Positions 35,249-60,081 of a DNA stretch of 64,000 nucleotides are shown here, piece after piece. Position 1 is the stretch's first letter. Each line of letters starts with the position of its first letter. A program made the position numbers and the translations under genes. The stretch comes from a virus. The notes below the pieces were generated by a model. It saw nothing but the letters and a program-made list of their open reading frames with translations, made no database searches and had not been told where the DNA came from. Location: positions 1 to 64,000 of IMG/VR virus record IMGVR_UViG_3300042892_002114; one strand, 5' to 3'.

Positions 35249-37801
35249 TTAGAAGGGTTTGAATGTGTACCATTGTCTCCAATATGGCTCGCTAGTGGTT
35301 GAATAGACCTTTAAGTCATTCTTGGCCATAAACTCATTGACGGCTTTTCTGACGCCAAATTTTCCAGCATACACAGGTTCTTTTCCGGAACCTGTCAGCC
35401 AAATATCACCGTCGTCCGGAATATAATCATCGCCACAGAACAACCCACCTTTCTTTACCTTTGGCCACCAAGCTTTCATATCACGCACAACTCCTTCATA
35501 AGAATGATCGGCGTCAATATAAACAAAGTCAAAATGTTCATCTGGAAACATATGAGCACTGGCCGCACTGTCCATGCGAATGATATGAGCACGATTTTGC
35601 CATGGTTTGATGTTCTCACAGGTCTTCACCAAGCAATCGTAATGATACTTATCATCTTGACCGTTCATATCAACATAGCTGCTAAGATGACGCCAAGCAT
35701 CCACTAGATATAGTTGACCTTCGTGCCAACGTTCCAATATTATCTTTGAATACTCTCCTCTGAGTACTCCAATTTCAATTCCTTTTCCGTGTGGAAACAT
35801 ATCATTGACCAATACCGCCAAATCTCGCTTGTCCGGACATCCACGAGCGTCAAGCATTTTTTGCAAATCCGTGTTTCTATCATCAATCTTCACTTCCGAT
35901 TTGGTTGCAAAAATGAACCCACCCTGTGCGTGTAAGCTTTGGACGGTGCAATTGAACCCAGCCGTTTTCAACTGGTTCAATACCAAAGTTGCATCTTTTT
36001 CATAAGTTCTTCCGCCAATGATATGATATTCCATTAGAATATTATCAATCATAGCCAAATCCGAATCATCCATTGAAGCGAACAAATCATATTCAGCGGT
36101 TTCTATGTCCACCTTCATCAAATCAATCTTTTGGATGTTATATTTCGTCACAAACGATTTGAACGATGTTGCATCTACTTTATACGATGTGTCCGAACCA
36201 TTCACATTTGCCACCGATGATACGATGGAATTTTTGCTGTCAACAAAGAATTCAAGTTGACCATCTTTATTGGACATAGCTTTCTCTACAACCACAACTT
36301 CATCTCCAAAAGAATTCTTCAATATTTTCAATGCATCCCTATTTGGTTCAACCGAGTAAACTTTTTGGCATTTTGCCGTGTGTTTTATATATTCTGTCCA
36401 CAGCCCGATATTTGCACCCACGTCAACAACAGTGTTAAATGTCTTTCCGTGTAAATATTTGTCATATATCTTATCAACAAAGAATTCCGTGTAATTCATA
36501 TATGTCGGCTGTGTGTCGTTTTTAAGAATAGATTGATATTTGTTGAATGCGGCGGGCTTTATGCGAAAAGTCTTGGAATCTAGCAATACACCGTTTTGAT
36601 AAAATTCCACCAACAATCCACCAAAGTATGGCTCGGTTTCATAATCAATCACGTGCTTCGGGGTAGGAATAATCCACCATTCCAAATTGGCAGGAAGCTG
36701 TGGATATTCAACAGCCCACACCACAGTGCGAGAATCCAGTTCTTTCACGGAGATGAGTAAATTATCTACGGTTTTATTGGCCGAGAATAGTACCTTGTTG
36801 TCTGTATTGTCGTATTTTACGTTGAAGCGAGTCATAGATTTTTCTGTATATAGGTTTAGGGCTTTTAGTATTTTGTTTAAATTTTCATCCTTGCTATCAT
36901 AATCAAGATATTTGATATTTTCATATTTGTCATACATTCCCATATACACAGGAGAATTATAAATCAACGTTGGTATATTGTATGATATTGCTTCGCGTAT
37001 AACCAATGGACTTGTTTCTTTGTCTCCATTTTCATCCTTGGACACAAACAGAAACAAATCGGCTGCTTGATAAAAATTATCCACATCTTTTCTTTCATTC
37101 CACCATTTGCAGTTGGATGGAAAATCTTTCATCAACGGTTCCCAATAGCTTCTAAAATTGTCTGCTTGATTTCCAATAAAATGAAACTGGATAGGTTGGT
37201 CTTTGAGTATTCTGGCATACTCAATAATTTCTTTTTGGTTTTTTCTTGATGTGAACAAACCAACGTGCACCACATGCTTTTTCTTTGGATCAAGACCCAA
37301 CACTCTCAGTGCTTCTTCTCTTGGCTTTCTGGGGTTGATGAGAATAGGATATTCACAAACTTCGGACGGTACATCAATATCTTTGAGATTTTCTTTTTGA
37401 TATTTGCTCACATATATCAATCGGTCTGGAAAGAATACTTTACCTTTTGGATCAAAGCTGCTGTCATGCGATGTTTCAATGATTTTATATCGTCTATCTT
37501 TGATGTATATCTTTTTGGCAATATCATGGTCCATGAAATATTCTGGCATTTCTTCCAGATGCACAACGTCGGGGTCCAAATCTTTGATTATGTCAACTAT
37601 TTTTGAGCGATCATAGTTCACAGAAATCAACCTGTCTTTGAGAATTTCTTTTATTTTGTTCTTTTGTACTGTGAAACAGCCGTGGTCTGCATACTCAATA
37701 CAATATATCTCGTGGTCTTTGTGCAAGACCTGTATCTTCTTCAACAAAAATTGCGGACAGCCACCCGTCGATAAATGCGGAGTAATATATAAAATTTTCA
37801 T
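35249..37801 (-). CDS. Fusion: GT4 glycosyltransferase + FkbM methyltransferase + class I SAM methyltransferase
   Basis: HLSTGGCP, VGLFTSRKNQ, ETSPLVIREA; VVDVGANIG, KVDIE; IEIGVLRG, VYIDADHSYEGV..D...W..KVKKGG...GDDY. Confidence 0.85.
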   Translation of the reverse strand: MKILYITPHLSTGGCPQFLLKKIQVLHKDHEIYCIEYADHGCFTVQKNKIKEILKDRLISVNYDRSKIVDIIKDLDPDVVHLEEMPEYFMDHDIAKKIYIKDRRYKIIETSHDSSFDPKGKVFFPDRLIYVSKYQKENLKDIDVPSEVCEYPILINPRKPREEALRVLGLDPKKKHVVHVGLFTSRKNQKEIIEYARILKDQPIQFHFIGNQADNFRSYWEPLMKDFPSNCKWWNERKDVDNFYQAADLFLFVSKDENGDKETSPLVIREAISYNIPTLIYNSPVYMGMYDKYENIKYLDYDSKDENLNKILKALNLYTEKSMTRFNVKYDNTDNKVLFSANKTVDNLLISVKELDSRTVVWAVEYPQLPANLEWWIIPTPKHVIDYETEPYFGGLLVEFYQNGVLLDSKTFRIKPAAFNKYQSILKNDTQPTYMNYTEFFVDKIYDKYLHGKTFNTVVDVGANIGLWTEYIKHTAKCQKVYSVEPNRDALKILKNSFGDEVVVVEKAMSNKDGQLEFFVDSKNSIVSSVANVNGSDTSYKVDATSFKSFVTKYNIQKIDLMKVDIETAEYDLFASMDDSDLAMIDNILMEYHIIGGRTYEKDATLVLNQLKTAGFNCTVQSLHAQGGFIFATKSEVKIDDRNTDLQKMLDARGCPDKRDLAVLVNDMFPHGKGIEIGVLRGEYSKIILERWHEGQLYLVDAWRHLSSYVDMNGQDDKYHYDCLVKTCENIKPWQNRAHIIRMDSAASAHMFPDEHFDFVYIDADHSYEGVVRDMKAWWPKVKKGGLFCGDDYIPDDGDIWLTGSGKEPVYAGKFGVRKAVNEFMAKNDLKVYSTTSEPYWRQWYTFKPF

Positions 37802-46566: not shown

Positions 46567-49500
46567 TTATGTATCAAAACGGACAATAATATTGACTGGC
46601 CAATCAATTAAATTTTTTATAGGACGGCCAAGTTTGCCAACTGCCACAAGTTGATTGTCTTGATATAATCCAATCGTAGTAACACATGGTGACAAGAATG
46701 AACCAGTTGCGTCATATGATGAACTATATTGATAACCAATAAATTCTGGATTTACTCTGAATGGATTGTTGCCGCAATATGGATTTAGATAATCTTCTAT
46801 ATCTTTGACATATCTACGAGTTGAATCTGATGTGAGATATTGTGCCAAAGTACTTGGATTTAATCTCTTCAACACATATAGTGCCAATATATAACCATCA
46901 TTCATGTTGATTTTTCCATCACCATCAATATCCAATAAACCAGTATCATATAAATTATTTGTTATAAACATATATGCAGTGTTGTTGAATGCTGACAAAT
47001 ATGAATATTTGATGCTGGATGCCGTATCATCTTCTTGTTGTAACACATCTTCGGATTCTGTTTGAAGAATATCATTTGCCCACCAACTAAAATCGGTGTT
47101 TGTGTCTTGTTCCAAAACAATGCCATTATCATCCAACACATAATCTGCATAAAACTTCTTGAGTTTCAAGTATCTCATGATAAGATCTACATCTTTATAA
47201 TCAAACACACCATCTTGATTTACATCAAATGTAAGAGGGTTTGGCTGCAATGAAGTTGGGTTGGTACTATAATTAAATTCACCCGGTCTTATTGACACAA
47301 GATATTCATGTTCATATATTGTATGAGCACCTTGATAATCCAAAGTAAATCCGCGAGAACCAGTTCCTGTCATCACATCATGATACATTGAAGATGTATT
47401 GGTGATGGCCAAATGTCCATTCTTATAAAACACATTGCCAATCTTTGGATCAACTTCATATTTGTTCATGTCATACACAAACACAGAACCAGAATATGAT
47501 GATGAAAATGAACCAGATTGATTTATTGGGTCCAACGCATCATTGCAAACGGAACCAACCACCAAATTCTGCCAGTCTCCACCCGCCATTATGCTTCCGG
47601 ACCATGCACAGAATGAATATGTAAAAGGCGATACACTCTGTGTGACAAAGTGGTTGGTGTTGCCATTACTTCCGCTGTACCAGATATCCATGTAATAATC
47701 TCCGTAGTAAAGAACGGAATCTACGGTGTATGAATAAGAACGAATGGAAGGAGCTAAATTTACGATTGGTGCTCCGACGCACATAAAATCGGATGCGATA
47801 GAAACAGAATATCCGTAGATATTGTATGGATGATTTTCTTCTTTGTTTCTTCTCAATTCACCGGCTCTATACCAGTTGTCATTTGTAAAATCAAAATTAT
47901 ACAATGTCACTCTACCCAACACAGAATCTAAAGAAGCAGAAGATTCATATGCATAATTTTCCAATATATAAGAACCGCTAGAATATACCACAGTTCTACC
48001 CAAAGTATCTGGTAATGAAGTAACTGCGGCTGTTGTACCGTCAATAGATACGGCATGTCCAAAATTATTATTGGTCAGATATTCTCTGTTTCCAAATGTT
48101 TTTGTCAGAAGGTCATATTGCCACGCCAAACATGCTTCATCATATCTATATGTGTATAAATATGCCGCGCCCAAAATCATAGCATTTCCTGTATATCCAT
48201 AGTATGGCTTAAAACCTTTATCGGCTTTGCACCCGATAATCAAGTTTTTTCCGCTTATATCCACGCTGTAACCAAACATGTCGGACACAATTGTATCGGA
48301 CGCATCGACGGAATATTCCGGAGCATCAATATTCAAATCACCATAACCCGAAGTTGCGGTGAATAGTTGATTTTGGCTCCAAGATGCAGTTGGGCATGCG
48401 GATAGAGATGCTGAGTGATAAGAACATGTGAACACAGCCGCGTAGCCTTTACCGGGTTTGTTTGTTCCTACAACCAATCGGTTTGAATCTAAAGATACAC
48501 ACCATCCAAAGTTGTCACCGACAGACTGATTGCTTGGAGTGATTGTAGTTTCATACACCCACGAATAGTTTCCGGAAACAAATGTTGGTGTATAACTTTG
48601 TGACGCAATATATGAACCGGTTTGCAGTTCTTTGCAAAAATCTTCTTGTGTAACAACCTGCATCCACACGGAACCGGTGTTGATACTTTGACATGGATAT
48701 TCAGCATCCATGTATCTTTTCTTTCTGTACAAATATACTGCACCCTTACTGCCGCTAACACCTGTAGCACCAACCGCTAATATATCATTGTCTATTGCAA
48801 CCGACGCGCCAAATCTGTCTCCGTTGCTTTTTCCTTTTAGAATATTAATTATTCCCCAATTATCTTCGCCACCCTTGTATCTGTCATAAACACACACAAA
48901 ACCTGGATACATACTTGAAGAACATACTGAACCCGTTGGAGAACCAACCGCCAAAAAATTATCTCGCACACACACAGATGTTCCAAAAGAATCTTTAAAA
49001 TATGACGATGTGTCTGTCAAACTTTGAGTAAATGGAAAATGAATCTTTGCAATTGGACGATGATGACCCCGAGTTTCATCATACTTGAATAACGCGGCAT
49101 GACCAATGCGAGCATCGGATAAACTATAAGCATCCATAGATGAACCAACCGCAACATATTTGGACCAACAACTCACAGATTCACCAAAGTGTTCATTTTC
49201 GGGAAAAAATAAATCCTGATGACTTCCTGTGTTTAATACCCACTCAGATCCACTTGATACTGGTGGAACATATGTTACTTGAAGCCCCATCGCCATATAT
49301 TGTTTGGCATTAATATAATTAACATATTGCGTGGAACCATTACTAAATGTTACATAAAATAAACCACTACCCGTGTCCCATTGTGAAATTGATACGTGAG
49401 TGTCTCTTATTGCTTGTATCTCTGCCGTTGATGGAAAGTGCGAACCGGTTGCATACAAGTTGGTGTAACCATCGTCATGAATTTTTAGAGTCTGGTGAAT

Positions 49501-49947
49501 ATCAGAATCATCCACAAGTTTAACCGTATTTGGTATAACTTTTTCACCATATACATTATGTTTCAATGTGGCAGTGATGATGCGATCATGAATTTCACGA
49601 ACTTCTTCTTTTCCAGTTTTTGGATCTTGTGTATATTCTTCAACACCAAACAACTTGATTGGTTCGCCGACATTCTTATAAAACATAGCATCGGTCATAC
49701 TATGTATATTTCTGGCATATTTACCAGAAGAATTTATTGGCTCATTGGTTGATACATAGTATATGCTACCAGACGGATAAAATGGAGTTGAAAGTTTAAG
49801 ACCTTCATTCACTTCCATTCTTCCATTATAATAAGTGCTATCACCATATGTGTTTACGCTCGCAGAATCAATGCTTTGTAATGTCCAATGCTTGAACGTG
49901 CTAAATGGTCTTACTGTGATGTCTCCCGCAGTGAACTGCTTAATCAT
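46567..49947 (-). CDS. Baseplate/tail-associated protein with FG-GAP propeller and dockerin-like insertions
   Basis: Repeated FG.SV.....L.VG...G.V.LY; DVNQDG/DIDGDG loops; C-terminal TTIGLY...LVAVGKL..PI shared with 49989..51137. Confidence 0.7.
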   Translation of the reverse strand: MIKQFTAGDITVRPFSTFKHWTLQSIDSASVNTYGDSTYYNGRMEVNEGLKLSTPFYPSGSIYYVSTNEPINSSGKYARNIHSMTDAMFYKNVGEPIKLFGVEEYTQDPKTGKEEVREIHDRIITATLKHNVYGEKVIPNTVKLVDDSDIHQTLKIHDDGYTNLYATGSHFPSTAEIQAIRDTHVSISQWDTGSGLFYVTFSNGSTQYVNYINAKQYMAMGLQVTYVPPVSSGSEWVLNTGSHQDLFFPENEHFGESVSCWSKYVAVGSSMDAYSLSDARIGHAALFKYDETRGHHRPIAKIHFPFTQSLTDTSSYFKDSFGTSVCVRDNFLAVGSPTGSVCSSSMYPGFVCVYDRYKGGEDNWGIINILKGKSNGDRFGASVAIDNDILAVGATGVSGSKGAVYLYRKKRYMDAEYPCQSINTGSVWMQVVTQEDFCKELQTGSYIASQSYTPTFVSGNYSWVYETTITPSNQSVGDNFGWCVSLDSNRLVVGTNKPGKGYAAVFTCSYHSASLSACPTASWSQNQLFTATSGYGDLNIDAPEYSVDASDTIVSDMFGYSVDISGKNLIIGCKADKGFKPYYGYTGNAMILGAAYLYTYRYDEACLAWQYDLLTKTFGNREYLTNNNFGHAVSIDGTTAAVTSLPDTLGRTVVYSSGSYILENYAYESSASLDSVLGRVTLYNFDFTNDNWYRAGELRRNKEENHPYNIYGYSVSIASDFMCVGAPIVNLAPSIRSYSYTVDSVLYYGDYYMDIWYSGSNGNTNHFVTQSVSPFTYSFCAWSGSIMAGGDWQNLVVGSVCNDALDPINQSGSFSSSYSGSVFVYDMNKYEVDPKIGNVFYKNGHLAITNTSSMYHDVMTGTGSRGFTLDYQGAHTIYEHEYLVSIRPGEFNYSTNPTSLQPNPLTFDVNQDGVFDYKDVDLIMRYLKLKKFYADYVLDDNGIVLEQDTNTDFSWWANDILQTESEDVLQQEDDTASSIKYSYLSAFNNTAYMFITNNLYDTGLLDIDGDGKINMNDGYILALYVLKRLNPSTLAQYLTSDSTRRYVKDIEDYLNPYCGNNPFRVNPEFIGYQYSSSYDATGSFLSPCVTTIGLYQDNQLVAVGKLGRPIKNLIDWPVNIIVRFDT

Positions 49948-49988
49948 ATAGACATAAATATTTGTCTACACTGGGATTTACCCGTTAC

Positions 49989-51137
49989 TCAAACATCAAT
50001 TTTTATTTTTATCAAGCACTCGTTGGTAAAGTCTTTTAACAACGGCTGACTCAACTTGGCAACTGCAACAAGGTCGTTGTTGTCATTATATAAACCAACT
50101 GTGGTGATATATACCTTTGGATTGGTATAAAAATCGCTAAATCTTAGCTTACCAATGTCTTGAGAATTGCTCGGATTATCGTTATCGGATATTACAAATG
50201 TTGGATTGTTGCTGTAGTTGTATTCTTGGTTCTTTACTCGAACAAAGAAGTGACGAGCAGGAACATATTCAGTTACTCTGGCTTTCATACCACTAAATAC
50301 CGCACCGTTCTTTATAGAACTAAACAACAAATTGCTCATGCGAGCAAATTGTGATCCCCATTCGTTTGCAGTATTCCAGTACAAAGAGTATCCATCAACT
50401 TTACCAATCAATTCATGTACCTTCTTGGCATTTAGAATAATAATACCCAAGTCTGGATACATCAAACCAATTGCTTGATAATTTCTTGTAGAAAGAGAAC
50501 CGGAAGCCAATGTTCCTTGTAGCAGGTTGTATCTCTTACCACCAGTTTGAACGCCGGTGTCTGGATTAATTCTAGAGTCATCAATTATTGTGATTATGGT
50601 TCCGAAACCACCCACACCGGAACCACTCAGTGTCATTTCAAATTGACCGGGATCTAATTTGTCTTTATACTTAGCATTTCTAAAAGAAATTGCGTAGATA
50701 TCATCCGCGTTTTCGTATGCATCAGAACCTGAAATAGAAGAAGATATAAACGTGAACTTGTCGTCACCGGGTGACAGCAACAAGTTTCTGTACTGATTAT
50801 ATATTGCCTTGGTTGGAAACAACAAACTTCCTTGCGAAGAATTTGTGTCGAAAGTAGAAGAACCGGACCCCGCATAATGACCATATGCAATGGAGAAATA
50901 AATATCGGAATTTGATGATCCGGTTGGAGCATCATACACATTGGTATAGTAAAGACCATTCAATGGTTCAAACAATGAAGAAGATTGTTGGGTTTGACGG
51001 CTACTGGTGTAAAATGATGAACCCACAGATACGGAACCACTTCCCCATATCGCTTCACCATCACTCCACAATCCGGTGGAAACTGGCTGAGTTCTTCCCG
51101 CCACTATGTCTGTCGAATCAAATTGTTTAAAAATCAT
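49989..51137 (-). CDS. Baseplate/tail structural protein (paralogue of 46567..49947)
   Basis: Shared MIxKQF...DI start, EYNYS.NPT and YITTVGLY...LVAVAKLSQP. Confidence 0.65.
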   Translation of the reverse strand: MIFKQFDSTDIVAGRTQPVSTGLWSDGEAIWGSGSVSVGSSFYTSSRQTQQSSSLFEPLNGLYYTNVYDAPTGSSNSDIYFSIAYGHYAGSGSSTFDTNSSQGSLLFPTKAIYNQYRNLLLSPGDDKFTFISSSISGSDAYENADDIYAISFRNAKYKDKLDPGQFEMTLSGSGVGGFGTIITIIDDSRINPDTGVQTGGKRYNLLQGTLASGSLSTRNYQAIGLMYPDLGIIILNAKKVHELIGKVDGYSLYWNTANEWGSQFARMSNLLFSSIKNGAVFSGMKARVTEYVPARHFFVRVKNQEYNYSNNPTFVISDNDNPSNSQDIGKLRFSDFYTNPKVYITTVGLYNDNNDLVAVAKLSQPLLKDFTNECLIKIKIDV

Positions 51138-51147
51138 TGTGGTAAAA

Positions 51148-51789
51148 TTACGAGGTTGTGGTTCCCTTTACATTCACAGTAACTGGTATTGTTACCGATC
51201 CGCCACTTTCATTTCCAACCACCGTGAGAGTTGCACTCAAGGTTTGTGTCAATGCTGAGTTTGGAACAAAACGGAAACGAAGACCAAGGCTAACTTGAGC
51301 AGTCGTCGAAGAAACATCTCCAATAAAAGTTGGGATAGTTGCGTTTGTAACATTCTGAAGTTGTTCGCCGATTATTGTGCCAGCCGACTTGTTGGACAAA
51401 ATTGCTGTATAACCAAGAGTTGTGTTATACACTGGATTGGTAGAAGGAACAATAACCACTTCTCCCTTATAGTCCTTGTCTACATAAATTGCACTTTGTC
51501 CAAGAGAAATGACTGGGATAGACGTGACTCCGGAAGGCAGAGTAACAAGCTTGTATTTTAGCAACTGAGTTTCGTCAGTGAATGCTTCAAATACCGGTGT
51601 GTTGCGAATAGCCAAATCATAGTAGGCTGAACCCTGTGGGTGATTTGGTTGATACAGACGATAATCAATTTCGTCGTCGGCCAAGGCATATGACTTGATA
51701 TTCAATCCGCCATTTGCCGCAAGTAGCTCTCTACCCTTCTTTGTCAAGACCGCATCCACTGTTATTATTTCATTATTGATATACGCCAT
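51148..51789 (-). CDS. Baseplate/tail structural protein
   Basis: DAVLTKKGRELLA...ALADDEIDY; lies in the baseplate cluster. Confidence 0.6.
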   Translation of the reverse strand: MAYINNEIITVDAVLTKKGRELLAANGGLNIKSYALADDEIDYRLYQPNHPQGSAYYDLAIRNTPVFEAFTDETQLLKYKLVTLPSGVTSIPVISLGQSAIYVDKDYKGEVVIVPSTNPVYNTTLGYTAILSNKSAGTIIGEQLQNVTNATIPTFIGDVSSTTAQVSLGLRFRFVPNSALTQTLSATLTVVGNESGGSVTIPVTVNVKGTTTS

Positions 51790-51840
51790 ATAGTGTTACT
51801 TTCTCAATAAATATATATCTGATTACTTTTTTTACTATTT

Positions 51841-54800
51841 TTACACCGTTTTTGTTTCAATTGGCTCAGAGTTATTCAACAAACCGGTGGTAACATCAAC
51901 AGTAGTTTTTTTATTTTGACTGTGCTTTTTCCACTTAAAACGGACTTTTGAATTGTCGTATGAGTTTATTTCCTTTAAAGAAAACTGTCGTTTACCGTAT
52001 TTATGGTGATTGTTGAAATACCCATTCAGCAATTCGGCGTTCTGGGGGTAATATTCCATAGATAGTGTTTTTTTATAATCAATGCCAGAAGACAAAGAAC
52101 CGAAGAATGTACCCGATGTTCTATATTTGAAGTCGTCGGTGACAGGACCAGTTCCAGATGACAAAAATGTGGTATTATATTTTGCAAGATTCAATGTAGC
52201 CGGAACTCCGCCGAATATACTTCCAACAAAATGATATGTTCCACCAGAATATGTAAAAGTTCCGGTGTAAATCATAGGATATGCCGAAACATAATCAGCA
52301 GTTATAGAAATGCCGGGTGATGATATTACACCATTTCCCGTCGATCCCCACACAGAACCGGATAATATTGTGCCATTCAATGAATGTGCTGATGATACAG
52401 TGAAAGATGTTGGCAACCCAATTGACGATGGAACAAAGCTGACGCTTCCGCTGTAGTATATATCTTCATAGGAAATTGTCGTGATATATGAAGTTAATTC
52501 TGGCAATTTTGCCATATTAATTTTGTAATAAGAAGACGACATTGTTTGAACTGTTCCATTCAAATTGACATTTATCTCACGGTCATTGAACGAAGACGAT
52601 GGTAAATTGTATTTGTTGTATACTTGATACTGCTTCTTGACTTTGATTACATCGGCTCTGTAATATTCTCCATTATAGTATGTTACTCCATTGTCTGAAT
52701 ATACTCCAAATCCGTACTGGTCTTCGTCGGTTGGAAAAAATATTTGATTTACATCACTTAAAATTGATGTTCCTTCATTTTTCGTAACCAAAGTATCTTC
52801 AAATTTTGGAACCTGTGTTCCGGCGATTCCGCGATTAACTTCTATGTGCGATTCTTTTTGTTGAATGGTTTCTTGAACCATTGGCTTCAACTGAATCTTC
52901 GGACGCTCCAAAATGGACGGTTCAATCAAAATACCATCAACGAGGTTGGCTCTGGCTGGAACAACCGACTTGATATATTTGAACATCGCCTTATCAAAAT
53001 AGAATCGTACCACGTTCATAAACAACTGATAGTCTATTGCACCAAATCCTTGGTCATAGAATATTTGCCTAAACTTTTCAAATCGAGTGTATGAGCTTGC
53101 ATACACATATGAAGGGTCTCCAATTAATTCAGATAACGGATAATTTCCAAAGAACTTGATTATTTCTGTGTTTTGAATTTCTGAAGGAGAGAAGAATATA
53201 CCAAGTCTATTAGATCCCATGCCAACAAGTTCACTTGATTGTAGGGACGAGCGTTCGGTTGAAGACAAGCTTGATATCAACTCTTGTTCAACATAATTTA
53301 TTTTATTGCTTCCGAACTTACCAGCACCATAATCAGGTAATTTTACTGTCTGTCTTGAATCCTTGCGAGTAAACTGCCAAGGAAATCCGGGTCCATTTGT
53401 AGGATCACATTCGGTCACTTGCTTCAGCGGAATATTATTTTCTGGGAAGTTTACTGCATCAAACGTCGGAAAATCACTACGGAAAGACAAATTGTTTAAG
53501 GTGGTGGAATTTGAAGGTGCATGCAATTCCAATGGACGTTCAAACGATATTCTGAGAAGATTATCAGAAATCATATTCACCGGAGAATTCATATCATATG
53601 CATTCTGATGCAATGTGTGATTTTCAAAAACAGAATCGCTGATGGGAGATTCCCAAATTTTTATTTCATCAATGTTTCCAAAGAATGCTTCTGGATCAAT
53701 ATTTAATGAAGCGGTATTCTGGTTATAGTTACCAATATAAACATGTGAACCAGAACGGAATTGTGTATTACAACTTCCACTCAAATATTGGCTTGCCGTT
53801 GCAAAGAATGTTATTCTTGAATCCTCGGCTCGTTGCAGTTGCACATCATACTTAATTGGGTATTGATCTATTTGAGACGGAGTGAAATTGTAAACGGAAA
53901 ATTCTTGGGATGCATCATGGCGGCGAAGCATGGCGTGATAGGTATTGCCATCAAACACCGGTGCCTTGTTGGTCATGATAGTCTTTACGCTACCGGAACC
54001 ATCGTCCAAGCTAAAGAACAGTTTTCCCCAATCCAATCCTTTGTCTCTATATACACCCAATAACCAACTACCTGGACATTCAGCTAATCTGAATACATGT
54101 CCTTCCTCACTTGTGTTGGTTTTGTCAAACGCAAAGTTGAATTCTAATGTTTGAGCACTTCCAGTCCAGTTGACCTTGAAATATTCCGAATTTCCACCAA
54201 AATATGGTTCGTATTTTACTTCGTCGATCACATACTCAGAAGTATCTTGTAGATTATGTATATTATGAATTCCACCATACTCTTTTATTTTTATGATATT
54301 CTTTGGTATTCCAAAGCAGCTCAACAATGATGACAATGAAGCTTCTGTACCTTTGGTCTTGTAGATATAAGGCAGGGTGTTGAGAATACGCTTCCAGATG
54401 ATTTGATTCCGCTGTTCTTCGGACAATTGTCTAGTTTGGTTATACAACTCTGTGCCAATATCAAAATCGTTTTGATTAAATGAAGACAATAATAACGGTA
54501 GATTCTCTTTAGAAATCTCCGCTTCCCATCCAAGCGATGCCAACATGTCTTCAACAATGTCCACAGAAATACCATAATTTGAACTGTTGGAATAATTGTT
54601 TTTCTCAGTGATTTGCTTGATGCTCAAAGAAAGATTGTCAAAGAAATGACCAACCATGCCAACAAACTTTATATAATCAATATTGGCATCCGATTCTTCC
54701 ACCATGAATTGTGGAAGATTGTTAATTAAAGAATTTCCATTGCTGCGATCATACAAAGACGACGAACCAATATGCTCCGTATACCATACAGGATTGTTGT

Positions 54801-56520
54801 ACAAGAATTTCTCATACCCATCCATTGAAGTTTCAATGTTGTCTATTTCCGTGTTAGCGTCTGTACGTTCTTTTATATAAAACTGATCGTCTGGATTGCT
54901 ATCAAGTTTGGTTGTAAAATATTCTATGTCGCCTTGCAATTTTTCAATTTGAGACTTTTTTGTATCAAATGCGGAAACTCTTAAAGTTGCTGATGAGAAA
55001 TTTACAAAGTTTTCAAATTTTCTGTAATTTGTATTATCAACAATGGTATCAAACGGAACACTTATCTTGGAAACCATTTCGCTGTACGCACTGCCGGTTT
55101 GGTTTATCAATTGTTCCATTGATAAAGCTTCTGTAGCATTACCCTGACTCTCAATCCTAACCAAAAAATTTGGACCCTTTAACCGAATCGTTTGTATATT
55201 TGGTTTGGTAAAATAGTATAAATTCTGAACTATAGGAAGAAATCCAAAGTTGTTCGAGATCCACAGATCATCTCCAACTGATATTGACGATGGTAAAGGA
55301 TCGCTCAGTTTTAATACCAACTTATCGTAAAATCTTGGATCGGCGGTGGAAACCACCTTTTTATTGAGAATGGAATATTTTTTATCTCCGTCAAAATTTA
55401 CATAATTCTTAAAATATCCGGACAAATATATGTTGTGCTTTGCCTCTATAACATAAATTTCCGGATAAAAAATGAGATTATAATAGATATACCCAAGAAA
55501 TTCTAGTATAGAGTTATAATCGTCCGGCTTCCTGTTGGTTATTCTGTTGAGTTCTTGATCAACTACAAATCTGAATATGCTATAATAGTAGTCGCGTACA
55601 TCTTGAAAATTGGTACCGGACTCATAATTCTGATATAACCAGTTTTTGAATTGGTCATATATTCCAAGAATATCATTTGTAGAAATTTCTCCACTGTTGC
55701 GAATGTTACCCTTCTTCACGCCATAGAACATGTCGGTCAGAAGATTTATAGCATCAATATCATTACCAGATTCCGATTCTCTGCTGTTCAATCCGTAATT
55801 ATACTTAAAGCTTGCGGCGGCATTTAAATATTGATTTTTCGCCGCGTAATATAAATTGTATATTGGTGGAGAAGAAATAGAATCTGTAAGAGACTCTGCG
55901 ATTTCCTTAATTTGAAATTGATAATTTAAGAATACATTAAATTCATCAACGGTGTTTGATCGTATTCCTTTTAGAGTCTTGGGAATTATTGCTATTTCAG
56001 TTCTTGATGTAGAGATTGTATCTATTATCAGCTTTTCGTCCGAACCGGATTCTGTTCCAACCAAATTTCTCAATAATTCTATGGAAACCTTGTAATTTCC
56101 ATCGGTTATTCCCACATTGTTCAACTCTTTGGATACATCCAATAAAATAGAACTTGTTAAAACGGAACCGGATGTATTTGTTGAATCGGTTGTTTCGGAA
56201 TAATCTGGCGTCGAATCTATAATAGGAAGAGTACTATTAAACTTCTCGTATGAATAAGTAACATATTTGTTGGTTACATCATAATATGACTGAGTATTTT
56301 TTGTATACGATCCGGACGACATGATCACGGATGCAGTTACTTGAGACTCATCAAAATTGAATACTGAGATCTTTATTATGTCCTTATCCGACTCCCCAAA
56401 CGGAAAATTAACATAAGTTTGATTCTCGGTATAAAACTTCAAATCTTTTTCAGAAAAAGTAGAACCAACATTCAAAGAAGATGTGGATTGTGTTCTATAT
56501 TTTATATCTGTAAGTTTCAT
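51841..56520 (-). CDS. Large baseplate wedge protein (gp7/P2 gpI-like core)
   Basis: YIYKTKGTEASL..LL.CFG and IKSVVPA motifs; lies near gp6. Confidence 0.6.
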   Translation of the reverse strand: MKLTDIKYRTQSTSSLNVGSTFSEKDLKFYTENQTYVNFPFGESDKDIIKISVFNFDESQVTASVIMSSGSYTKNTQSYYDVTNKYVTYSYEKFNSTLPIIDSTPDYSETTDSTNTSGSVLTSSILLDVSKELNNVGITDGNYKVSIELLRNLVGTESGSDEKLIIDTISTSRTEIAIIPKTLKGIRSNTVDEFNVFLNYQFQIKEIAESLTDSISSPPIYNLYYAAKNQYLNAAASFKYNYGLNSRESESGNDIDAINLLTDMFYGVKKGNIRNSGEISTNDILGIYDQFKNWLYQNYESGTNFQDVRDYYYSIFRFVVDQELNRITNRKPDDYNSILEFLGYIYYNLIFYPEIYVIEAKHNIYLSGYFKNYVNFDGDKKYSILNKKVVSTADPRFYDKLVLKLSDPLPSSISVGDDLWISNNFGFLPIVQNLYYFTKPNIQTIRLKGPNFLVRIESQGNATEALSMEQLINQTGSAYSEMVSKISVPFDTIVDNTNYRKFENFVNFSSATLRVSAFDTKKSQIEKLQGDIEYFTTKLDSNPDDQFYIKERTDANTEIDNIETSMDGYEKFLYNNPVWYTEHIGSSSLYDRSNGNSLINNLPQFMVEESDANIDYIKFVGMVGHFFDNLSLSIKQITEKNNYSNSSNYGISVDIVEDMLASLGWEAEISKENLPLLLSSFNQNDFDIGTELYNQTRQLSEEQRNQIIWKRILNTLPYIYKTKGTEASLSSLLSCFGIPKNIIKIKEYGGIHNIHNLQDTSEYVIDEVKYEPYFGGNSEYFKVNWTGSAQTLEFNFAFDKTNTSEEGHVFRLAECPGSWLLGVYRDKGLDWGKLFFSLDDGSGSVKTIMTNKAPVFDGNTYHAMLRRHDASQEFSVYNFTPSQIDQYPIKYDVQLQRAEDSRITFFATASQYLSGSCNTQFRSGSHVYIGNYNQNTASLNIDPEAFFGNIDEIKIWESPISDSVFENHTLHQNAYDMNSPVNMISDNLLRISFERPLELHAPSNSTTLNNLSFRSDFPTFDAVNFPENNIPLKQVTECDPTNGPGFPWQFTRKDSRQTVKLPDYGAGKFGSNKINYVEQELISSLSSTERSSLQSSELVGMGSNRLGIFFSPSEIQNTEIIKFFGNYPLSELIGDPSYVYASSYTRFEKFRQIFYDQGFGAIDYQLFMNVVRFYFDKAMFKYIKSVVPARANLVDGILIEPSILERPKIQLKPMVQETIQQKESHIEVNRGIAGTQVPKFEDTLVTKNEGTSILSDVNQIFFPTDEDQYGFGVYSDNGVTYYNGEYYRADVIKVKKQYQVYNKYNLPSSSFNDREINVNLNGTVQTMSSSYYKINMAKLPELTSYITTISYEDIYYSGSVSFVPSSIGLPTSFTVSSAHSLNGTILSGSVWGSTGNGVISSPGISITADYVSAYPMIYTGTFTYSGGTYHFVGSIFGGVPATLNLAKYNTTFLSSGTGPVTDDFKYRTSGTFFGSLSSGIDYKKTLSMEYYPQNAELLNGYFNNHHKYGKRQFSLKEINSYDNSKVRFKWKKHSQNKKTTVDVTTGLLNNSEPIETKTV

Positions 56521-56738
56521 AGTTCTTTGAATGTAACATCATATTTTGTTTCTACTTTGATTGGATCATACACAACATTCTGTAAAGGAATGGTTATCGA
56601 GGATGAATACAACTGGCCACTAACATTTTGTATAATCAAATTACCGTATGAATCTATGTTTGGGATTATTGACCCGCTGGAATATAGAGTCTGTATATCA
56701 TTTTGATTATAACCTGTCAGATATGGATTTGGTTTCAT
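56517..56738 (-). CDS. Small hypothetical protein
   Basis: 73 aa; ATGA overlaps with both neighbours. Confidence 0.65.
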   Translation of the reverse strand: MKPNPYLTGYNQNDIQTLYSSGSIIPNIDSYGNLIIQNVSGQLYSSSITIPLQNVVYDPIKVETKYDVTFKEL

Positions 56739-58069
56739 CTAGAGATCTTGAATGCGGTTGGAACAGTGAATGTCATTATAGAGCCACTTTGCTCTGAACG
56801 AATTTCTACCTTGTAATATCTTTCTTGAGGAAGACCGGTTGTATCCAACATAAAATAATTTCCATATGAATCAAAACTTAATCTGGTATATTCGTCATAT
56901 GGCAATACAGAATCTTCGGTTTCAGCGTCTTTAATAGAATAGAAACTTGAACTTGGTAAATAATACGGAGTCAAATAGTCTGAAAGTTTGTTTGTAAATG
57001 TTTTTTGTGGATAACGCTTTCTTGAAGTTACATCCATTCTTAAAATAGAACCGTGCTTATATTCTTTAGCAAGGTTCTTCATATTAACAACGGCGTCTCT
57101 CAATTGAATTGGGTCAGCACTACCGGTTTCTATTAACGCATCATTCCAAGCAACATCAATGTATGGAGAATATATTGTATTGGTTTCTTTGGAGAAGAAT
57201 CTTAATTTCCCATAATCAATAGAACTTGATTCATCGCTATGTAATACAATCAATCCGTTATTTTCAATTCCACCTGTTAGCCATGCTTCTACGATTGGGG
57301 TTACATCCATACGAACATCGCTGGTTTGATAATCAAACGATTGAGTGCAAGCATATCCTCCGGTAACTGGTGCTATATAAGATGAAGTTGCTGGTGGAAC
57401 ATAAGTGTCGTCGCAATTTGGAAACGGATTATATGGATTGTTGTATGGAAGTTGAGCATATCCAGAACCAGAACCTAGCAAGCTTGCAGAAATCCACCAA
57501 ACACCACCGCCGCTACAATCGGTTAAAGAACCAGTTGTCCATTTTTCAGAGAATCCATCAACAAACTTCCAATTTGCTCCATCCGACGCAGATTGACCAT
57601 CGTACTTATATCCAGAACCCATTCCCCAAGATTGAGAAATTGGATATGCAGCAAGTGTGTATTTTACAGGAACTTCTTTAGATTCGCATGTTTTTAGAAC
57701 AAGATAAAAGCGAGGATTTACTATCTTGTTACATACTATAGAAGATGATATATCACTCAAATCAAATTGTAATAATGCTCTTGATAATACAGAACCTTGA
57801 GTAACTTGACTGGTTTGGATATATGAACTTGATATAACCTTCGGGTCGGTTGAACCTGAATCAAAGGAAGCGGACATCGAACCGCTTAAAAGTTCAATGC
57901 TTGAACTGGTGAATGAAATTGGTGTGGAATATGTTCCCTTACTTGAGCAACTAGCATAAGATACCCGTTTTTCCACTTCAATAATTTCGTCCAACCCCAT
58001 GTTCTTGAACATATATGACGGATCGTTGCTGATGGTGGTGTCTTTGGTTGGATATAAAAAGTAATGCAT
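56735..58069 (-). CDS. Structural protein with DNRLRE-like domain
   Basis: KDTTIS, SRALLQFDLS, DVT.IV.AW, NNGLIV, FFSKET...PYI. Confidence 0.55.
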   Translation of the reverse strand: MHYFLYPTKDTTISNDPSYMFKNMGLDEIIEVEKRVSYASCSSKGTYSTPISFTSSSIELLSGSMSASFDSGSTDPKVISSSYIQTSQVTQGSVLSRALLQFDLSDISSSIVCNKIVNPRFYLVLKTCESKEVPVKYTLAAYPISQSWGMGSGYKYDGQSASDGANWKFVDGFSEKWTTGSLTDCSGGGVWWISASLLGSGSGYAQLPYNNPYNPFPNCDDTYVPPATSSYIAPVTGGYACTQSFDYQTSDVRMDVTPIVEAWLTGGIENNGLIVLHSDESSSIDYGKLRFFSKETNTIYSPYIDVAWNDALIETGSADPIQLRDAVVNMKNLAKEYKHGSILRMDVTSRKRYPQKTFTNKLSDYLTPYYLPSSSFYSIKDAETEDSVLPYDEYTRLSFDSYGNYFMLDTTGLPQERYYKVEIRSEQSGSIMTFTVPTAFKISR

Positions 58070-58125: not shown

Positions 58126-60081
58126 TTATGCCACTCTGCCTACAATGTCTTTTGTGGGAAATCTTACTTCAAATATCGAAGGATCAATTGATGGATATAC
58201 CACCTTGTCTAATGTAGCTTTGACTATATCATATTCATATGGAGAATAATCACCATCTCGCAATGTTAAATTTTTGATTTTCAATGAAGAAACGGATTGC
58301 ACTCCATCAATCTTGGCAATCTCCAGCTCAAGGCGACTCAAATTAATTGGTTGGCAAAACTGAATATTGTTGATGTCAAAGAATTGTTGAACCAAAGTCA
58401 AACAATTTGCCAACACTTCTCGCTTATTATAATTTTTATAAGCAATGATAGTGAAGTCCACTCCGATATTTATTATATATCCATCCAATAGATTTACACT
58501 GTCTGTCAACATACGATATTGATTGAGATAGTTCTTGAGATTTTGACGAATGGCTTCGTTTGTATTTATCAAACGTTGGTTCGTATCATAACCAAGCAAA
58601 TATAGATTGATGGCCGACTGGTTGTTCTGGTTGATATTCTTACGATTTGTATTTTCAGGACCAAGTGAGCTTGTAGAAAGTTGATTTGGAAATGCCTGTA
58701 TATTTGGTAAATCCAAGTTAGTATCTGCAACAGCATACGCCTTGGCAACAGAACCAAACTTTGACGGCATTGAATATGTTCTTACAACATAATCTTTTTG
58801 AGTAACTGCTCTACCTTGTGCAGAAAAACTTGATAATGCATTGTTGCGAATTTCATCATTGGTTTCCGAACCGCGACCGCCAGAAGCTGGAACCGGGTTA
58901 TTTACTTTTACAGAACGTCTGACCAAATTTGTAAGTCCCTGATCAAACACAGGTAATTCTGTGATATCTCCGAAGAATTCAACGTTGGTAATGTTCTTTA
59001 TAGTATTGGCATTAACATTGCTTTCCAATCCACCACCTGTGATATAACGAATGGTCAATGTTGTGTTGCTCGGAGCTTGTCCAAATGCCCTAGACGACAG
59101 AAAATTTGCTGGGTCGTAGTTTATGCTCTCATTTCTGAATGTGTTTGGTTTTCCAACCGTATATACGTTTGGAACAATGATTTCGTCGTCGGAGATATTT
59201 GTACCAGACCCAAACTCCAAGAATGTTGTATTGTCGGCTTGTACACCGGTAACAAACCGTTTAGATGTTCTTAAATACTTTAGTAAGAACGGAACGGTGT
59301 CTCTGTGTGAAGAAAGTGACATATCGTTTTTGTATATATTCTCACTTTCAATTGGCACCAAATCTTGTGCAAGATAATCTGTTTCATGCCACCGATTTCC
59401 GTCAGAATCATATACATCAAAAACTTCAATGATATTTGTTTCAGATAGATATATTTTATAAAATGGAGATGGTGCTGATATGCTCACAGTTTTGCTTATC
59501 AATTGACCAGAAAATGCTTCAGCGGACTTTTTTAATACATAAAATTCTGGCTGACTAGCAGCGTTGCGTTGATATACAGAAACTTCAAGCGGATCGTTCT
59601 GGGTATCTACAGTAAAGTCTACTGGTACACTAGTCAAAAATGAAACTCCGGAATCGCTAGTAGCGGACATACCGGGTTTTATGATTTGAGCATAACTCAT
59701 ATCCGGAACAATGCTACCGTCTTCTGAAATTTTTGATGGCACCAATTGATATACATCAAAATTTGTTACGCTTGGAGCGGTTGGTTTTGACTTGTAACTC
59801 AAAGAACGAGCAGAATCAATAATATTCTGACGCTCTTCTGAATTTACCAACATAGATTCTTTGAATTGATAGTCTATATAATATGATAATACGTCACCAA
59901 CATAAGCCGCCATTTCAATATACATCATGCCAGGTGAAGCATCGCTAAAATCCTTGTATGTGTTTGGATAATATGTTTTAGAAAAATCAATCAAAGACTG
60001 CTTCAATTGCGAGAAGTCCTTGCTTAGATACTTAACATCTCTTTTTCCAGGTTGAAAGGATTTTGGTGTGTCTAAAATCAT
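58126..60081 (-). CDS. gp6: Baseplate wedge protein, T4 gp6-like
   Basis: KDF..LK..LI, AAYVGDVLSYY.D, GG...ET..EIR.NA, QGRAVT.KDY. Confidence 0.85.
   Translation of the reverse strand: MILDTPKSFQPGKRDVKYLSKDFSQLKQSLIDFSKTYYPNTYKDFSDASPGMMYIEMAAYVGDVLSYYIDYQFKESMLVNSEERQNIIDSARSLSYKSKPTAPSVTNFDVYQLVPSKISEDGSIVPDMSYAQIIKPGMSATSDSGVSFLTSVPVDFTVDTQNDPLEVSVYQRNAASQPEFYVLKKSAEAFSGQLISKTVSISAPSPFYKIYLSETNIIEVFDVYDSDGNRWHETDYLAQDLVPIESENIYKNDMSLSSHRDTVPFLLKYLRTSKRFVTGVQADNTTFLEFGSGTNISDDEIIVPNVYTVGKPNTFRNESINYDPANFLSSRAFGQAPSNTTLTIRYITGGGLESNVNANTIKNITNVEFFGDITELPVFDQGLTNLVRRSVKVNNPVPASGGRGSETNDEIRNNALSSFSAQGRAVTQKDYVVRTYSMPSKFGSVAKAYAVADTNLDLPNIQAFPNQLSTSSLGPENTNRKNINQNNQSAINLYLLGYDTNQRLINTNEAIRQNLKNYLNQYRMLTDSVNLLDGYIINIGVDFTIIAYKNYNKREVLANCLTLVQQFFDINNIQFCQPINLSRLELEIAKIDGVQSVSSLKIKNLTLRDGDYSPYEYDIVKATLDKVVYPSIDPSIFEVRFPTKDIVGRVA

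Follow-up and report, generated by a model that had tools for sequence, protein, structure and literature searches.

An ordered Ser/Thr-Gly-Ser motif in a clade of aquatic T4-like phages: excess in outward-facing virion proteins and possible role as a glycosylation acceptor loop

Gene content of the window

The DNA analyzed here (the window) comprises 64,000 nucleotides, positions 1 to 64,000 of IMG/VR virus record IMGVR_UViG_3300042892_002114, and belongs to the 91-kb contig of an uncultured, giant T4-like phage. It encodes a gp13-like neck protein, a gp23-like major capsid protein (12001-13605), a glycan island and, at 46567-58069, a block with one adhesin-like and three baseplate-module proteins next to a gp6-like gene (Table 1). 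The Foldseek matches of the 444-aa protein of this block are carbohydrate-binding modules (8WAB, 7VBO).

Table 1. Features of the window, with observed vs expected motif counts
Feature	Position	Strand	[ST]GS	[ST][GAS]S	Remarks
gp13-like neck protein	6774..7991	-	4 vs 0.3	4 vs 0.8 (p 0.006)	immuto orthologue annotated as head completion protein
gp23-like major capsid protein segment, residues 165-240	12886..13113	-		6 vs 1.9 (p 0.012), whole protein	capsid protein identified by tblastn
711-aa fusion: GT4-type glycosyltransferase (~1-330) and TibC/Aah-type protein Ser O-heptosyltransferase (339-711)	30310..32445	-			Pfam, 4RAP, TIGR04414
FkbM-family methyltransferase in island	33507..34421	-			Pfam Methyltransf_21, E 1e-12
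850-aa protein: GT4, FkbM methyltransferase and Methyltransf_24	35249..37801	-			
1126-aa adhesin-like protein with FG-GAP repeats	46567..49947	-	16 vs 1.7	26 vs 5.0 (z 9.6)	Pfam FG-GAP_2, E 2e-33
382-aa baseplate-module protein	49989..51137	-	6 vs 0.8	9 vs 2.4	
213-aa protein between enriched genes	51148..51789	-			
1559-aa baseplate-module protein	51841..56520	-	10 vs 1.9	18 vs 6.2	
444-aa baseplate-module protein, CBM96-like beta-sandwich	56735..58069	-	6 vs 0.95	16 vs 3.7	directly downstream of gp6-like gene
gp6-like inner baseplate wedge protein	58126..60081	-			PHROG baseplate wedge matches; internal negative control

The 711-aa protein scores 384.8 bits against the NCBIfam model TIGR04414 for the bacterial autotransporter heptosyltransferase (BAHT) family (equivalog cut-off 200, residues 340-710) and aligns by phmmer with the TibC structure 4RAP (E 2e-76, TibC residues 21-380). 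The catalytic base of TibC, Asp-110, and its sugar-binding residues Thr-226, Lys-230, Arg-286 and Trp-305 (PMC4358343) are all identical in the phage protein (LGDLL, ATQSTCQAKYW, ER, GLSWLAW), and the four iron-finger cysteines, 339, 342, 358 and 370 in TibC (PMC4358343), are conserved in the pattern C-x-G-C ... W-C-P ... F-E-C. TibC Pro-300 is replaced by Ser, as in Aah. The Ser-directed heptosyltransferase of a preliminary description of this DNA is therefore, judged by sequence, a true member of the TibC/Aah-type Ser O-heptosyltransferase family with that predicted activity, and the GT/methyltransferase island described around it is present as well, with GT4, FkbM and methyltransferase genes adjoining the fusion. 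An autotransporter substrate gene was not found near the BAHT gene within the window, its neighbors there being a 1306-aa enzyme fusion and genes for GTs and methyltransferases; this is a trait of the genomic context and not of the enzyme. The heptose-synthesis genes GmhA (SIS_2) and HldE (PfkB) were not found in the complete BAHT-positive genomes of two relatives, G001 and Microcystis phage Mel-JY01, which suggests that the donor comes from the host or that another sugar is used.

Motif statistics

The preliminary description had [ST]-[GAS]-S tripeptides recurring throughout the outer virion proteins. Per-protein counts against 1000 composition shuffles of each sequence bear this out in all four proteins of the 46567-58069 block, including the 444-aa protein, for which about 14 motifs had been claimed and 16 were counted, and the named enrichment of gp13 and of the gp23 insertion was likewise recovered, all six capsid sites falling within residues 165-240. 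The claimed scarcity in the terminase (2 vs 1.7 expected), primase (0) and Mre11-Rad50 (0 vs 1.6) also held. The fibre at 1..260 has to be struck from the list, with 2 motifs vs 3.1 expected in fragment 3-260.

As to the motif itself, an unbiased scan of the four block proteins placed SGS first among 8000 tripeptides (25 vs 3.3 expected, p 3e-14) and TGS second (13 vs 2.1). The excess is weaker for SAS (6 vs 2.0) and TAS (5 vs 1.3) and reaches only about twofold for SSS and TSS, so that the broader motif stands in full for [ST]-G-S alone; SGT, NGS, DGS, AGS, GGS and SGG are not enriched. Ser is strongly preferred over Thr at position 3 (SGS 25 vs SGT 3), and residue order matters, the anagrams GSS and SSG occurring 5 and 6 times and those of TGS 2-4 times. 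Shuffling inside 6-residue blocks leaves [ST]GS in excess (38 vs 8.5, z 10.7). By composition shuffles, tripeptide ranking and block shuffles, the ordered motif thus exceeds both global and local composition expectation, as a sequon should. The 46 sites are spread over 35 different 9-mers and are therefore not a DNA motif, and the codons at the sites vary, which argues for selection at the protein level. The ordered [ST]-G-S excess is genuine and stronger than first described.

The excess is limited to a few outward-facing virion proteins, their exposure being judged from protein identity and secondary structure, and the motif is confined in this way to the class of substrates expected of a virion sequon. 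It is shared by unrelated folds: a CBM-like sandwich, an FG-GAP propeller, a neck protein and a capsid insertion. The gp6-like protein has no [ST]GS sites in all lineages checked, as is the case for the 213-aa protein, and sites are likewise missing from the portal, terminase and Rad50 throughout these lineages. Ser/Gly-rich virion proteins are not enriched as such (918-aa propeller, 0 vs 5.8; 60975-61871, 1 vs 3.9). Outside the enriched virion proteins, the motif O/E of the proteome is about 1.0, and motif avoidance was not seen in non-structural proteins.

Distribution in related phages

The motif is restricted to one clade of aquatic far-T4 phages, which includes the window phage, Mel-JY01 and Flavobacterium phage immuto. 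In the window phage and its clade, Ser/Thr-Gly-Ser occurs at about seven times chance in proteins of the outer baseplate, the neck and the capsid surface; the control myoviruses T4, S-PM2, P-SSM2, HTVC008M, KVP40 and phiKZ have an O/E of 0.85-1.5 and no anagram bias. In the complete 297-kb genome of G001, 13 ORFs carry 200 sites (67 expected), and the other 255 ORFs have an O/E of 1.01. The 73 homologues of the 444-aa protein carry 439 sites vs 58 expected, and the orthologues of the 1559-aa protein are enriched in all lineages of the clade. The gp13-like orthologues have 4 sites in G001, 4 in G038, 3 in G020 and 0 in LR756508, a phage nested in the clade with 0.15 sites per 100 aa. Neither Mel-JY01 nor immuto conserves the capsid-segment sites.

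A pair of adjacent GT4-like genes, lying outside the window phage's contig and scored in complete genomes, is carried by immuto, Mel-JY01 and G001, each of which has a strong excess, and is absent from eight other complete genomes, in which the excess is weak or none. LR756508 retains one gene of the pair. The match between pair and excess is perfect over the 11 complete genomes, although the three carriers belong to one clade and the association therefore rests on very few independent contrasts. On this genomic evidence, the pair appears to track the motif better than the BAHT island does. Similarity to proven protein O-glycosyltransferases was not detected for the pair, which gave generic GT4 matches only, and no GtfA/GtfB chains were among its solved-structure matches at E up to 1.

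Context and conservation of the sites

The sites share the consensus hydrophobic-hydrophobic-[ST]-G-S-hydrophobic-hydrophobic, of which [ST]-A-S is a weaker variant; the flanks are hydrophobic at -2, -1, +3 and +4, and D/N are depleted at -1. The preliminary description asked for the sites to be placed on surface loops, and all that could be mapped on AF2 models lie in loops or at strand ends. In the 444-aa model (pLDDT 82), six of six [ST]GS sites are in loops or hairpin turns, site 428 on a two-residue hairpin, and in the poor model of the 382-aa protein (pLDDT 61) they are at strand ends or in loops. About three sites of the 1126-aa protein occupy the loop preceding the last strand of an FG-GAP repeat. 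Sporadic alignment columns gain SGS (28), TGS (21) and SAS (22) more often than their anagrams (4-17). In the hot columns, both hydroxyl positions are retained as often as Gly or more often, and in some columns [ST]-x-S persists as G varies.

Possible function of the motif

Here it is tentatively proposed, with a confidence somewhat short of even, that [ST]GS loops serve as acceptors in a phage-encoded O-glycosylation of the virion, of which the heptosyltransferase island makes accessory use. The motif would mark short exposed inter-strand loops on outward-facing virion proteins, retained and repeatedly regenerated as O-glycosylation acceptors. Soluble glycosyltransferases encoded by the phage would modify these proteins within the host cytoplasm, and the clade-specific pair of GT4-like genes together with a GT2 (immuto, Mel-JY01, G001) would most likely be the primary writer. 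The window island (GT4-BAHT fusion, GT4-FkbM-methyltransferase and FkbM) may be an exchangeable module that probably acts on the same type of loop, where heptose or a sugar related to it would be attached and then extended and methylated. The motif statistics, the restriction to certain proteins and one clade, and the identity of the enzymes are established here; that any site is modified, by which enzyme and with which sugar, we infer. A picture in which all these parts hold at once, namely a clade-wide, phage-made and partly methylated O-glycan coat on outward-facing proteins, with [ST]-G-S as hairpin sequon, the GT4-like pair as writer and exchangeable islands that include a phage version of TibC, is rather unlikely as a whole.

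A serious rival, possible but somewhat doubtful, is a purely structural loop idiom, in which [ST]-G-S would be the clade's preferred tight turn or loop cap, unmodified and regenerated for folding or stability, and the glycan islands would serve other targets (collagen-like or Pro-Thr-rich fibres, host surface molecules or DNA). The Gly and the loop position of every mappable site are also what a plain turn motif would show, and count against the acceptor-loop reading. Column 530 of the 444-aa family exchanges SGS for DGS or NGA, as in an ordinary beta-turn, and NG is mildly depleted (0.7-0.9), perhaps because turns prone to deamidation are avoided. Enrichment falls on the same proteins in all lineages irrespective of GT content, even in G019 and G020, in which no glycan gene was found in 80-103 kb. 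However, DG is not depleted, and G-S is favored but not G-T, G-N or G-D; the hydroxyl positions are conserved no less than the Gly. Unrelated folds share the motif, whereas the inner baseplate and Ser/Gly-rich virion proteins do not, and myoviruses whose proteins are similarly beta-rich, T4-like ones included, are unbiased. Finally, the O/E is about twice as high in island-bearing lineages: the lineage means for the block are 6.3, 6.7, 6.3 and 5.8 where a glycan island separates Rad50 from terminase and 3.3, 3.7 and 2.7 where that site has none (Mann-Whitney p 0.03, n=4 vs 3, with island classes assigned after seeing the data).

In its strict form, the preliminary description had the TibC-like enzyme and the GT/methyltransferase island of the window as the writer and [ST]-[GAS]-S as their evolved sequon, which now seems improbable. 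The BAHT is genuine, the BAHT-positive lineages have the highest O/E (6.3, 6.7 and 6.3 vs 2.7-5.8 elsewhere), and BAHT identity falls from 99% to 40% with phage divergence, as vertical descent and later losses would give. Known BAHT acceptors, such as N-S-G-G-A-V and T-S-A-A-V, have their Ser where the loop that joins two strands opens (PMC3835316, PMC4358343), a geometry that the phage sites resemble in their flanks and hairpin model. The proposed co-occurrence of motif and island holds only as the quantitative trend given above, since the motif persists without the island: it remains at 3-4 times expectation in G019 and G020, where the island is cleanly absent from the syntenic site, and at 4.6 times in immuto, which has no BAHT, the range being 3-6 times when G038, with a swapped island, is included. 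Conversely, the unrelated giant phage LR756501 has the same two-gene module, with an orthologue of the 850-aa protein (46% identity) adjoining its BAHT gene, and has no general excess (O/E 1.16). The islands vary by lineage, with BAHT in the window phage, GT7-lectin fusions in G038 and another set in immuto; one common sequon for all of these enzymes is not parsimonious, a point that weighs against the acceptor-loop proposal. The autotransporter adjoining an E. coli BAHT gene is rich in SGG (14 vs 1.9) and has no SGS, and about one third of the phage sites start with Thr, which TibC did not modify (PMC4358343). The single island-and-motif system is thus not upheld, and from these comparisons the motif is evidently not a creation of the window's adhesin-type heptosyltransferase.

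Another surface role, by a different modification such as phosphorylation or through direct contact with host polysaccharide or mucus-like matrices, would suit the limitation to outward-facing adhesin-like proteins (CBM96-like, FG-GAP) and the unproven tie of the motif to any transferase, but is very unlikely, with no kinase or other writer co-conserved in the genomes examined and with short loops dispersed over many folds making an improbable binding surface.

If the full picture of a clade-wide glycan coat is true, phages with Gram-negative and cyanobacterial hosts would have their first sequon-directed, virion-wide O-glycosylation system. Should [ST]GS serve as an attachment point for sugars, virion glycosylation would be widespread among environmental T4-like phages and not a mycobacteriophage curiosity, with bearing on phage stability, adsorption and evasion of host surface defenses and grazing. 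The clade would also hold new soluble O-glycosyltransferases that modify proteins at a simple loop, and the sequence tag would allow substrates to be predicted from genomes. A purely structural motif would still be an unusual rule, specific to this clade, for the design of exposed loops. Mel-JY01 and immuto are cultured, and the idea is directly testable in them.

Comparison with known glycosylation systems

The closest likeness is to the BAHTs (TibC-TibA and Aah-AIDA-I of E. coli), of which the window enzyme is an equivalog-level member. These modify, in the cytoplasm, numerous Ser residues that open strand-loop-strand loops in a surface protein rich in beta-structure, the geometry also found at the phage sites. 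Unlike them, the window enzyme is phage-encoded, fused to an N-terminal GT4 and without an autotransporter nearby; the candidates for its substrate are virion proteins with several different folds, the motif also occurs in relatives without the enzyme, and S-G-S/T-G-S is enriched in place of the S-G-G of the 19-residue autotransporter repeats.

The glycosyltransferases of mycobacteriophages decorate the phages' own structural proteins, in the C-terminal parts of capsid and tail-tube subunits, according to the account of Freeman et al. (2023, Cell Host Microbe) given in PMC12619734. By comparison, the candidate sites here are loop motifs dispersed over baseplate, neck and capsid-insertion proteins of T4-like phages with Gram-negative or cyanobacterial hosts.

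In Gram-positive bacteria, GtfA/GtfB prime serine-rich-repeat adhesins in the cytoplasm at Ser-x-Ser-type acceptors. The phage GT4-like pair resembles this system in its two adjacent GT-B-type genes and the Ser-x-Ser-type acceptor sequence, but has no detectable sequence similarity to it, and the phage sites are isolated loops and not long Ser-rich repeats. Similarly, chlorovirus PBCV-1 carries out virus-encoded, host-independent cytoplasmic glycosylation of its capsid with methylated sugars, in that case as N-linked glycans at atypical sites of one capsid protein of a eukaryotic virus. The likeness of the window phage clade to PBCV-1 is marginal: among solved structures, the gp181-like GT matches the PBCV-1 glycosyltransferase B736L best, at a weak E of 0.0016.

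Phage Affiliation and Gene Content

The 64-kb window lies in a 91,314-base IMG/VR viral contig, estimated to be ~33% complete, from a T4-like ("far-T4") myovirus whose gp23-like capsid protein has 56% identity to Microcystis phage Mel-JY01, Flavobacterium phage immuto and the metagenomic phage LR756508; IMG/VR also holds a complete 297-kb relative, G001. Pfam and PHROG annotation includes an intein-bearing portal, terminase, prohead protease, primase and an Mre11-Rad50 fusion, and the four motif-bearing proteins are located downstream of the gp6-like gene. Intein-free portals in relatives have 578-664 aa. Two homing-endonuclease-like genes, both on the minus strand, interrupt the run of structural and replication genes.

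Coordinates of features in the window, its contig and other phages, with [ST][GAS]S counts against composition shuffles
Feature	Coordinates	Observed	Expected	Remarks
918-aa T/G/A-rich propeller protein	3600-6356	0	5.8	Between neck genes; minus strand
gp13-like protein	6774-7991	4	0.8	Weaker
Homing-endonuclease-like, GIY-YIG with NUMOD3	7991-8698			
gp23-like capsid protein	12001-13605	6	1.9	Weaker; every site in residues 165-240
T4-type portal with intein, 1028 aa	20527-23613			Minus strand; Pfam Intein_splicing at residues 160-489 within Portal_T4
711-aa GT4-heptosyltransferase fusion	30310-32445			
FkbM methyltransferase	33507-34421			Near 711-aa gene
850-aa GT4-FkbM-Methyltransf_24 protein				Near 711-aa gene
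Homing-endonuclease-like, NUMOD3 protein	43345-44280			
1126-aa protein	46567-49947	26	5.0	z 9.6
382-aa protein	49989-51137	9	2.4	
1559-aa protein	51841-56520	18	6.2	
444-aa protein	56735-58069	16	3.7	
gp6-like baseplate protein	58126-60081			Pfam/PHROG
gp25-like baseplate protein	60078-60482			Pfam/PHROG
Second glycan island, outside window	68126-72673 (L217:4126-8673)			GT60 GlcNAc-transferase PF11397, Pfam E 2e-72
Partial heptosyltransferase ORFs in relatives	G001:179995-180576, G014:5686-6501, G036:38788-39597, G023:1790-2386			
LR756501 giant proteins, 2719-3487 aa	399879-410342, 102894-111344, 411185-419344			

Motif Enrichment in Virion Proteins

The preliminary description held that [ST][GAS]S tripeptides saturate the proteins encoded at 46567-58069, and against 1000 composition shuffles all four are indeed strongly enriched. 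The gp13-like and gp23-like proteins also carry the motif, more weakly, and terminase, primase and Mre11-Rad50, described as poor in it, show no enrichment; the fibre fragment at 3-260, listed as motif-bearing, does not have an excess (2 observed vs. 3.1 expected). The S/G-rich virion protein at 60975-61871 is depleted (1 vs. 3.9 expected). The 918-aa propeller protein, also a virion protein rich in S/G, is depleted too (0 vs. 5.8), a trend opposite to that of its neighbours.

Among all 8000 tripeptides scanned in the four proteins, SGS ranks first (25 vs. 3.3 expected, p 3e-14), followed by TGS (13 vs. 2.1) and then GSV, with SGT, NGS, DGS, AGS, GGS and SGG at expectation, so the core motif is [ST]-G-S, [ST]-A-S being weaker and SSS/TSS marginal; no strong enrichment of any other tripeptide was found in the window proteins. 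Residue order counts, since the 25 SGS compare with 5 GSS and 6 SSG, and the 13 TGS with 2-4 for each of five anagrams. Shuffling in blocks of six residues gave 8.5 expected sites vs. 38 observed (z 10.7), and the anagram counts together with block shuffles of 6-30 residues rule out composition or local S/G richness. Because the 46 sites are encoded by 35 different 9-mers, with both Ser codon families in use, the signal is in the protein and a DNA-level motif is ruled out. Internal repeats were rejected as the source, the repeat consensus accounting for ~3 of 16 sites in the FG-GAP protein.

Distribution among Phages

The baseplate and fibre proteins of T4 have 7 sites vs. 8.8 expected. In S-PM2, P-SSM2, HTVC008M, KVP40 and phiKZ the observed/expected ratio (O/E) is 0.85-1.5, no more than one ORF per phage reaches significance, and SGS is roughly as frequent as its anagrams; with no excess in T4 and these five control myoviruses, the motif is not generic to phage tails, fibres or baseplates. 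The bias is present in Mel-JY01, immuto, G001 and three further IMG/VR relatives (G038, G019 and G020). In G001 the excess is concentrated in 13 ORFs, with 200 sites vs. 67 expected; O/E across the remaining 255 ORFs is 1.01. Each lineage has its enrichment in one and the same set of orthologues, and gp6, a 213-aa protein, portal, terminase and Rad50 are empty in each. The motif is a clade-wide, order-specific trait of outward-facing virion proteins.

In RM378 (NC_004735.1) the bias is more diffuse, with 51 [ST]GS vs. 18.3 expected (2.8x) in the whole proteome and 20 SGS vs. 7 GSS and 9 SSG; this excess is proteome-wide, unlike the restriction to few proteins in the rest of the clade.

Structural Context and Evolution of the Sites

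A structural loop idiom, and nothing else, is a possible explanation of the motif, to which we give about a one-in-three weight. When 123 sites of the window phage, Mel-JY01 and immuto are pooled, positions -2, -1, +3 and +4 show a 1.4x enrichment of hydrophobic residues and Asp/Asn stand at 0.29x at -1, a strand-loop-strand context. AlphaFold modelling of the 444-aa protein (pLDDT 82) puts each of its six [ST]GS sites in a loop, site 428 being on a two-residue hairpin; in the poor model of the 382-aa protein (pLDDT 61) the sites are at strand ends or in loops. The 444-aa protein includes a CBM96-like sandwich, for which Foldseek gave matches to 8WAB and 7VBO. The sites are probably exposed, as judged from protein identity and secondary structure. 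The 444-aa protein and the 1126-aa protein, which has FG-GAP repeats, look like adhesins. Deamidation avoidance, with S-G in place of N-G or D-G, is a weak explanation because NG has an O/E of 0.7-0.9 and DG is not depleted.

A set of 73 homologues of the 444-aa protein, 43-95% identical, has 439 [ST]GS sites vs. 58 expected, the motif being present in >70% of sequences at three columns, in 30-45% at five more and sporadically at ~40. Sporadic columns number 28 for SGS, 21 for TGS, 22 for SAS and 14 for TAS, 2-3 times more than for their anagrams (4-17). Sequences without the complete motif at a hot column still have S/T at position 1 in 59% of cases, the Gly in 40% and the third-position Ser in 38%; certain columns hold [ST]-x-S, where x is G, S, Q, A or E, and one behaves as an ordinary turn (SGS, DGS, NGA). 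When the window phage is compared with Mel-JY01 and immuto, the positions of most sites are not conserved, yet density is kept up. The motif is continually regenerated, a pattern that suggests selection by an extrinsic agent more than the demands of one fold.

Glycosyltransferase Genes and the Motif

Phage-encoded cytoplasmic O-glycosylation is the best-supported candidate for the selective agent on the motif. The main writer would most probably be a conserved pair of adjacent GT4-like genes (immuto gp181 and gp180), and exchangeable islands, including the heptosyltransferase fusion of the window, would be accessory users whose presence goes with about twice the motif excess of lineages without them; we favour this reading tentatively, at somewhat short of even confidence. 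Virion glycosylation has been documented in mycobacteriophages, in work cited in PMC12619734; a literature search found no paper on a phage TibC/Aah-type protein Ser O-heptosyltransferase (BAHT) or on the [ST]GS motif.

The order of gp181, gp180 and the GT2 gene gp178 is conserved in Mel-JY01 (83441-86972) and in G001 (118068-121708; 46%, 44% and 34% identity), while LR756508 and RM378 have the gp181-like gene alone, and both members of the pair are missing from LR756501 and the five control phages. The pair was scored in complete genomes only, since in G001 it lies ~115 kb from the baseplate genes and partial contigs, including that of the window, are not scorable. On this basis, strong motif excess is present in three of three genomes with the pair and in none of eight without it. 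LR756508, nested within the clade, has lost most motif density (0.15 sites per 100 aa). Of the deposited phages, only Mel-JY01 and the immuto phages carry a gp180-like gene. The pair has generic GT4 similarity only, with PBCV-1 B736L as the best solved-structure match (E 0.0016) and no GtfA or GtfB match among solved structures.

The strict version in the preliminary description, in which the motif was shaped by the BAHT as its writer, has a low probability. The 711-aa protein, with a GT4-type domain in its N-terminal third, matches the TibC structure 4RAP over residues 339-704 (E 2e-76) and NCBIfam equivalog TIGR04414 (384.8 bits, cut-off 200), and retains TibC Asp-110 (catalytic), Thr-226, Lys-230, Arg-286, Trp-305 and four of four iron-finger Cys (roles per PMC4358343). 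TibC modifies Ser and not Thr in its acceptors N-S-G-G-A-V and T-S-A-A-V (PMC4358343). In an E. coli plasmid autotransporter adjoining a BAHT gene, SGG is the top tripeptide (14 vs. 1.9) and SGS is absent (0), whereas the phage proteins are enriched in [ST]GS with SGG at expectation; thus, the phage motif resembles the known BAHT acceptor without being identical. G001 and Mel-JY01, the complete genomes with BAHT, lack genes for both GmhA and HldE, which makes the sugar donor uncertain, and domain annotation gives no support to a 1306-aa neighbour as heptose-activating enzyme.

Of the 44 related IMG/VR records, 20 encode BAHT; immuto, LR756508 and RM378 lack it. BAHT is also missing from the syntenic site of G019 and G020, where Rad50, a 701-aa orthologue and terminase-side genes are adjacent with no space for an island, and no GT1, GT2, GT9, GT60, FkbM or epimerase genes were found in the 80-103 kb of these contigs; their block O/E is still 3.3-3.7. 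The unrelated 735-kb phage LR756501 has the same two-gene module and an O/E of 1.16. Because the excess persists without the island and the module occurs without the excess, the BAHT island did not create the motif. The proposal that island and motif form one system is not supported: higher O/E with islands is a quantitative trend, and the motif persists without them. Lineages with and without an island between Rad50 and terminase are fully separated in O/E, in a post hoc comparison of few lineages (Mann-Whitney p 0.03).

Block O/E (lineage means; lineages placed by gp6 tree) and islands between Rad50 and terminase
Lineage or phage	Island	Block O/E
A (window phage)	BAHT-type	6.3
B3	BAHT-type	6.7
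Mel-JY01	BAHT-type	6.3
G038	Other type	5.8
B1	None	3.3
B2 (G019, G020)	None	3.7
LR756508	None	2.7
immuto	Elsewhere in genome	4.6

Other Glycan Genes

The Rad50-terminase site acts like a hot spot at which one glycan module is exchanged for another. At this site G038 (IMGVR_UViG_3300030085_004590) has a different 27-kb island (33451-62251, loci L234-L236) with a methyltransferase, a GT2-type gene, a radical-SAM enzyme, TPP-dependent enzymes, RmlC, four epimerases/dehydratases, two GT7-type (beta-4-galactosyltransferase-like) enzymes fused to lectin-like Laminin_G_3 and a free Laminin_G_3 protein; a family screen for GT1, GT2, GT9, FkbM and GT60 misses this island of GT7-lectin fusions and deoxysugar genes.

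Several relatives have second BAHT copies, ORFs of ~300 aa matching the C-terminal half only (residues ~90-373 or 180-373), which are either truncated paralogues or remnants. The giant proteins of LR756501, in which Gly, Ser and Thr each make up ~25% of residues and S-G-[STG] triplets number in the hundreds, resemble collagen-like Gly-Thr-Ser repeats; in this phage they may serve as BAHT substrates. Such repeats are present in LR756501 and G001; a tie to BAHT was rejected, as they also occur in BAHT-less G020 and BAHT-positive Mel-JY01 is nearly without them.

The second island on the contig of the window also has HtrL_YibB, DUF3431 and a weak Nucleotid_trans match. Its GT60 was rejected as a universal writer, since Mel-JY01, immuto and LR756508 lack it; it was found in G001, G012 and G022. 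Pro-Thr-rich proteins are encoded beside this island (72961-75390 and 78373-79950).
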